From IMG/VR virus record IMGVR_UViG_2740892258_000015, positions 1 through 12,639 of that record: a stretch of DNA of 12,639 nucleotides; one strand, written 5' to 3'. A program made the translations under genes and the position numbers. Below are positions 10,553-11,194 of this stretch, in pieces (position 1 is the stretch's first letter; each line of letters opens with the position of its first letter). A model generated the notes under the pieces. It had not been told where the DNA came from, did no database searches, and was given only the letters and a program-made list of their open reading frames with translations. This DNA is from a virus. Lineage: Duplodnaviria; Heunggongvirae; Uroviricota; Caudoviricetes.

Positions 10553-11194
10553 GAAATACACACTAATCTATGCAGATCCACCCTGGGTATACCGGGACAA
10601 AGCCGCAAATGGTAATCGCGGTGCCGGTTTTAAATATCCGGTTATGAGTGTGCTGGATATCTGCCGCCTTCCTGTGTGGGATTTGGCCGATGAAAACTGT
10701 CTGTTGGCCATGTGGTGGGTGCCAACACAACCACTCGAAGCACTAAAAGTTGTTGAAGCCTGGGGATTCCGTCTGATGACGATGAAGGGCTTCACGTGGA
10801 TAAAATGTGGTAGTCGACAACCAGATAAACTTGTTATGGGTATGGGACACATGACTCGCGCCAATAGTGAAGATTGCCTGTTTGCGGTAAAGGGAAACTA
10901 CCTCCGCGCATTAATGCAGGGATCGTTCAGTCATTTACCGCACCGCGGCTTGAGCACTCAAGAAAACCAGATGTCGTTCGTGAAAAACTTGTGCAATTGT
11001 TAGGCGATGTTTCTCGCATTGAACTATTCGCCCGCCAGTCGTCTCATGGCTTCGATGTTTGGGGTAATCAGTGCGAAGACCCGGCAGTGCAACTACACCC
11101 TGGATACGCGTTGGATATTGGCGGATTAACAAATGCATTCAGCATTTCTCCGCTGTCACCAACAGACAACCAGGGGCGGGAGCGTGCTGCATGA
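10545..11194 (+). pseudogene. DNA N6-adenine methyltransferase (MT-A70-like, DPPW motif), frameshifted; possible programmed -1 frameshift
   Basis: N-terminal frame (ATG 10545, or GTG 10533) carries motif IYADPPW and ends at 11003. The conserved C-terminal part (EHSRKPD..ELFARQ..DVWGNQ) continues in the -1 frame to 11194. The frames meet at GGGAAAC (10892-10898), which is in zero frame as G_GGA_AAC. Confidence 0.6.

Follow-up and report, generated by a model that had tools for sequence, protein, structure and literature searches.

The G_GGA_AAG site of lambda G-GT is a bacterial -1 programmed frameshift site. All 64 heptamers have been assayed in E. coli by Sharma et al. 2014 (PMC4066793), with a background of ~0.055%. 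In these assays, GGGAAAC gave -1 frameshifting of 0.164% without stimulator, 0.22% with the IS911 stimulators and 0.89% with the IS3 pseudoknot, and the corresponding values for AAAGGGA were 0.136%, 0.67% and 3.5%. G_GGA_AAC was termed "of low efficiency", and a re-pairing from AAC to AAA is poorly tolerated by bacterial ribosomes, but some IS elements probably use this heptamer despite its low efficiency (PMC4066793). The other systems that need to be considered here are phage-encoded orphan DNA methyltransferases (MTases). In class beta amino-methyltransferases the motifs come in the order IV-TRD-I (PMC7544214), and in the Uetakevirus phages phiV10 and TL-2011b the MTase gene is a single 651-nt ORF (216 codons) that is annotated as DNA methyltransferase.

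In the window, by which we mean the entire analysed stretch of 12,639 nucleotides from the IMG/VR virus record IMGVR_UViG_2740892258_000015, such a gene is found on the plus strand, but it is split over two frames, and our frame-0 and -1 translations agree with an earlier note that had described this split. Frame 0 begins with the ATG at 10545, which is the annotated CDS start in E. coli IHE3034, APEC O18 and N1, and reads MTKKYTLIYADPPW...EDCLFAVKGNYLRALMQ...; it covers the N-terminal part of the MT-A70 MTase at 10545-10897 and ends at a premature TAG (11001-11003), 34 out-of-frame codons past the site of the frame change. From 10871 on the -1 frame is open, and it encodes the C-terminal part (10898-11194) with HSRKPD, IELFARQ and DVWGNQ (..GKGKLPPRINAGIVQSFTAPRLEHSRKPD..IELFARQ..DVWGNQ..), and its TGA stop at 11192-11194 coincides with the annotated pseudogene end in the same three genomes. 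The two frames indeed meet at an in-phase G_GGA_AAC (10892-10898), where the zero-frame codons are GGA and AAC, and this heptamer is overlapped by a second one that is likewise in phase, A_AAG_GGA at 10889-10895. Also the reported ATGA overlap with the next gene is present, as the TGA of the MTase shares these four nucleotides with the ATG (11191) of the downstream DUF1382 gene (11191-11385, plus strand). Upstream, the gene of a PerC-family regulator (10301-10552, plus strand), which is defined by the IHE3034 annotation of the identical sequence and by called genes in metagenome contigs, overlaps the MTase start by 8 nt and belongs to the same operon.

What is the origin of this two-frame arrangement? 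The earlier note had offered two readings, a pseudogene that arose by a 1-bp deletion in an A run, or an MTase that is translationally controlled via a -1 slippery site. The comparison with relatives speaks for the first and against the second, and we consider it highly probable that the gene is an ordinary frameshift pseudogene, in which one A was lost from an A4 run within a small clonal group of E. coli, and that the heptamer is incidental. The window region shares 97-98% identity with the early-left operon found in Uetakevirus phages, among them phiV10, TL-2011b and the O157 typing phages. The site reads GGGAAAAC in each of the four phage sequences that were aligned, as opposed to GGGAAAC in the window, and in three of the four the gene is one 651-nt ORF, the fourth, phiv142-3, having other 1-nt deletions. 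The alignment, a 42-mer site probe and a codon alignment all place the deletion in the A3 run at 10895-10897 (plus strand), which is A4 in all intact alleles. It had been asked whether an extra A in homologs restores a single frame, and this is the case, as the A4 alleles have an uninterrupted frame with GGGAAAAC. When one A is re-inserted into the window gene, a protein of 216 residues results, and the closest intact allele of E. coli (MFDS1019527) differs from it by 2 residues. With the intact protein as tblastn query, 413 of 512 phage records matched 80% or more of that protein, and among the matches listed, every row was one single-frame piece. In the case of phiv142-3 (MN187550, 201-948), four separate 1-nt deletions lie in short homopolymer runs and just a 279-nt fragment is annotated; these gaps are likely sequencing errors or independent decay. 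Several records of Stx2a-converting phages (LC616067, LC616078 and others) match only MTase residues 94-187, which suggests that copies in another phage lineage are disrupted N-terminally.

In E. coli, the A3 allele has a very narrow distribution. A survey of 5,426 complete genomes contained 542 records with the MTase gene. The 42-nt site probe matched exactly, i.e. with A3, in five of these records (IHE3034, APEC O18, N1, N21 and N54), and it matched with a one-base-longer span of 43 nt in 289 other E. coli records; in the rest of the 542 the probe failed to seed because of nearby SNPs. In 60 records sampled at even spacing down the ranking, the extra base was present in every site-spanning row outside the A3 clade. 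Over 3493-12639 (9.1 kb), the five genomes with A3 share 99.7-100% identity with the window, which speaks for a single mutational event with subsequent clonal inheritance. Beyond these genomes, 53 indexed blocks of public assemblies, from metagenomes and sequencing runs, contain the exact 152-aa product of frame 0. Each of the seven assembly loci that were fetched has the A3 site within the same prophage context, and in three the sequence extends into guaA. The MTase gene is already annotated publicly in RefSeq by PGAP (NCBI), and the label in the three genomes checked, IHE3034, APEC O18 and N1, is pseudogene, 'frameshifted'. The features that define a pseudogene thus occur together at this locus: a one-base difference restores the ORF, the lesion is clonally restricted (5/542 records), and the premature stop cuts off a part of the protein that is essential.

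These data also bear on the idea that the gene is in reality intact and that the missing base is an error of sequencing or assembly in a homopolymer. Indels in homopolymers are a common type of error, and phiv142-3 shows four such 1-nt gaps in the same gene, but a homopolymer of 3-4 bases is a short one for errors of this kind, and the identical A3 is found in five separate complete-genome assemblies and in 7/7 fetched loci of the 53 indexed blocks. Since all seven fetched loci have A3 in the same prophage context, a sequencing error can hardly be the cause, and we assign a negligible probability to it. The indel in a homopolymer could further bring to mind a phase-variable contingency locus, or, as TTG 10874 opens the C-terminal frame, an enzyme that is naturally split into two subunits. 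Known phase-variable tracts are far longer than this tract of 3-4 nt, and A3 and A4 do not alternate among lineages, as A3 occurs in one clade only. Concerning a split enzyme, the sole candidates for independent initiation of the C-terminal frame are TTG 10874, GTG 10991, TTG 10997 and GTG 11087. None of these is preceded by an SD-like sequence, and the lack of a ribosome-binding site at any of these starts makes a split enzyme unlikely; moreover, there is no split homolog among those compared. Phase variation and natural splitting together are thus about as improbable as a mere sequencing error.

How does the deletion affect the protein? The gene would encode an orphan MT-A70 (class beta) N6-adenine MTase of a phiV10/epsilon15-like (Uetakevirus) prophage that is integrated beside guaA, and its relatives in the PDB are MT-A70 family proteins and METTL3. 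With the Pfam profile MT-A70 (PF05063; gathering cutoff 23.9 bits), the intact protein scores 78.6 bits, the N-terminal part of the window 54.5 and the C-terminal part 25.4. Whereas the intact allele covers profile positions 1-172 in one chain, positions 1-116 are found in the frame-0 product (10545-11003) and positions 128-172 in the C-terminal piece. Normal reading of the mRNA would yield the 152-residue product, consisting of 118 native residues, an Asn in place of a Lys, and 33 out-of-frame residues. This product retains the catalytic motif IV, DPPW, at residues 12-15, but the C-terminal third is missing from its MT-A70 domain. As this third is where class beta enzymes place the SAM-binding motif I, the truncated product should be inactive, judged from its sequence.

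Some full-length MTase is nevertheless probably made by error, though such leaky read-through would yield traces at most. A slip on A_AAG_GGA would restore exactly the wild-type peptide VKGKLPPR, and a slip on G_GGA_AAC would result in VKGNLPPR. According to the codon alignment, Asn is natural at the junction position in an Stx-phage homolog of 83% identity, and the trans-frame product VKGN-LPPR could, by this comparison, be active. The two published motif values sum to ~0.3%. In E. coli test genes, non-programmed suppression of 1-bp deletions amounts to 1-10% in aggregate (Springstein et al. 2024, PMC10861913).

It is tempting to go one step further and to assume programmed -1 frameshifting, in which the two-frame layout is functional and G_GGA_AAC sets the amount of MTase. 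An in-phase heptamer lies exactly where the homology changes frame, IS elements use this motif family, the trans-frame Asn is tolerated in a homolog, and two overlapping heptamers might sum in their effects. However, the two-frame layout exists in one near-identical clade only (5/542 records), and the other alleles, in the sampled E. coli records and the aligned phages, all have the extra base or a single frame. The heptamer is present only because the intact codons are AAG GGA AAA and because a base was lost from the last of them, so that G_GGA_AAA of the intact alleles became G_GGA_AAC. The A_AAG_GGA heptamer, in contrast, is not new, as the intact allele already reads A_AAG_GGA and G_GGA_AAA in phase (A_AAG_GGA_AAA; e.g. 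L006 1390-1399), simply due to the codons for Lys-Gly-Lys. These tandem heptamers of the intact alleles are probably incidental as well, judged from the loss of the motif in diverged homologs. In published assays, GGGAAAA of the intact alleles permitted 17% frameshifting with a strong pseudoknot and 0.12% without it, and a slip on it in these alleles would lead to a stop 7 codons later. The coincidence of frameshift and heptamer is no more than expected by chance. Homopolymers of 4 nt or longer occur ten times in the closest intact allele, and in 2/10 of them the removal of one base generates an in-phase X_XXY_YYZ at the site, which renders the coincidence unremarkable.

Conservation of the heptamer had been set beforehand as a test of recoding, and this expectation is not borne out. 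In the codon alignment, seven diverged homologs with 72-83% identity were compared (Tyrion, PA28, two Klebsiella phages, SPN9TCW, a Yersinia phage and Hafnia yong1), and the in-phase heptamer is kept in none of the seven. The site codons vary in homologs of this identity range (GTG CGT GGG AAA; GTG AAA GGA AAT; GTG AAA GGC AAA; GTT CGT GGC CGG), and the heptamer is therefore not conserved. Neither did the search for stimulators support a recoding signal. The earlier note had called for a check for a downstream stem-loop, and the fold of 10899-10990 (92 nt), like that of four sub-windows, was no better than that of shuffled sequences (z = +0.92 for pseudoknot-free folds), the best local hairpin downstream of the heptamer having -5.9 kcal/mol. 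In the 30 nt upstream of the heptamer, there is no SD-like stimulator of the kinds GGAG, GAGG, AGGA or AAGG. The flanks of the site are the same as in the intact alleles, which need no frameshift. In the E. coli translation system, which corresponds to that of the host, the heptamer is inefficient by the published values (0.16-0.9%). Programmed frameshifting is thus very unlikely at this locus.

Another possibility is that selection favoured the deletion because the enzyme does harm in this host, e.g. via methyl-adenine-dependent restriction. Such adaptive attenuation would follow the 'savior indel' concept, which is documented for herpesvirus thymidine kinase (PMC5009743), and 1-bp deletions can be suppressed up to 1-10% in aggregate (PMC10861913); trace slippage on A_AAG_GGA_AAC would then provide a residual level that is tolerated. 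The occurrence of A3 in isolates from humans and chicken, as well as in many assemblies of metagenomes and sequencing runs, would also be in agreement with this. On the other hand, there is no sign of selection. The allele goes back to a single clonal event, and the deletion was followed by another nonsynonymous change at a conserved residue. Position 10608 of the window is changed from G to A, resulting in D22N in the window and in N1, whereas IHE3034 and APEC O18 keep the Asp that is found at MTase residue 22 in 10/11 homologs. This change occurred after the frameshift within the A3 clade and, although a single event, fits relaxed constraint. In addition, the prophage copy in the window appears to lack every virion gene, which fits general decay. 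Attenuation by selection is hence improbable, and the same slight chance is given to its more specific form, in which A3 is a selected attenuated allele whose ~0.3% slippage on A_AAG_GGA_AAC supplies a trickle of active MTase that is tolerated or useful in the K1 lineage.

The prophage context deserves a closer look in this respect. The relative in IHE3034 (2,872,000-2,908,400 examined) is a full-length prophage of the phiV10/epsilon15-like (Uetakevirus) type, ~39.6 kb long and located between yfgI and guaA. Its genes include one for tRNA-Arg, and its tailspike is annotated as endosialidase, which makes the K1 capsule its probable target. In the window, positions 1-3492 comprise yfgH and yfgI together with the lysis cassette and the 3'-terminal 99 nt of the tailspike gene, and at 3492|3493 the sequence jumps to the early region, so that 28,075 bp of the IHE3034 sequence are missing, including every packaging, head and tail gene. 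The junction shows no microhomology. It was not found in the public metagenome collection, in which one contig spans the right breakpoint in the undeleted arrangement of IHE3034. Either the segment has truly been deleted in this strain, or the junction is an artefact of joining. In the first case, the prophage of the window is a defective 11.5-kb remnant, in agreement with decay; in the second, what has been concluded on the MTase remains unchanged. Somewhere within 3493-12639, window and IHE3034 further differ in length by 24 nt in frame, and this difference probably resides in a DnaT-like replication gene (5187-6002, minus strand), for which 271 aa and 263 aa are found among contigs.

The frameshift pseudogene can thus be explained by a simple sequence of events. 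The MTase would have been inactivated by loss of one A from the A4 run, a mutation of the replication-slippage type, the slippage being suggested by the nature of the lesion. This mutation most likely arose once and would have been inherited clonally within a group of K1-type E. coli that comprises IHE3034, APEC O18, N1, N21, N54 and the source of the window. The biological weight of the finding is small, as it adds one more decayed prophage gene. It can, however, serve as a warning in genome scans, since the hot spots of 1-nt indels, the homopolymer runs, are at the same time building blocks of X_XXY_YYZ, and for this reason a frameshift that lies on a slippery heptamer is to be expected fairly often (here for 2/10 runs). 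Such a coincidence is no evidence for recoding unless the heptamer is conserved and accompanied by a stimulator.

A comparison with the known systems summarizes how the locus should be classified. With the A_AAA_AAG sites of dnaX and of IS3/IS911, the window shares an X_XXY_YYZ heptamer in zero-frame phase. However, bacterial programmed -1 sites are conserved in relatives and have AAG in the A-site in E. coli, whereas the site of the window is not conserved and has AAC, and while most programmed sites are accompanied by stimulators, be it an SD, a hairpin or a pseudoknot, or an SD in combination with one of the latter, the window site has no SD-like motif upstream and no downstream fold better than that of shuffled sequences. 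As in the non-programmed suppression described by Springstein et al. 2024 (PMC10861913), the window has a 1-bp deletion and a zone of frame overlap (10871-11000) for -1 slips; that study addresses a general error process with no designed signal, whereas in the window only slips near 10889-10898 keep the conserved motifs. The MTases of phiV10 (gp33) and TL-2011b (gp03), which are Uetakevirus orphan MT-A70 enzymes, resemble the window gene in nucleotide sequence (97-98% identity), in the DPPW motif and in the operon position PerC - MTase - DUF1382 - integrase, but they have A4, a single 216-codon ORF and a full MT-A70 domain, as opposed to A3 and two frames. From the PGAP pseudogenes ECOK1_RS14875 of IHE3034 and APECO18_RS08550 of APEC O18 the window gene differs by one base, being identical to that of N1; these pseudogenes have the same 1-nt deletion and lie in the same position with respect to the genes for PerC, DUF1382 and integrase.
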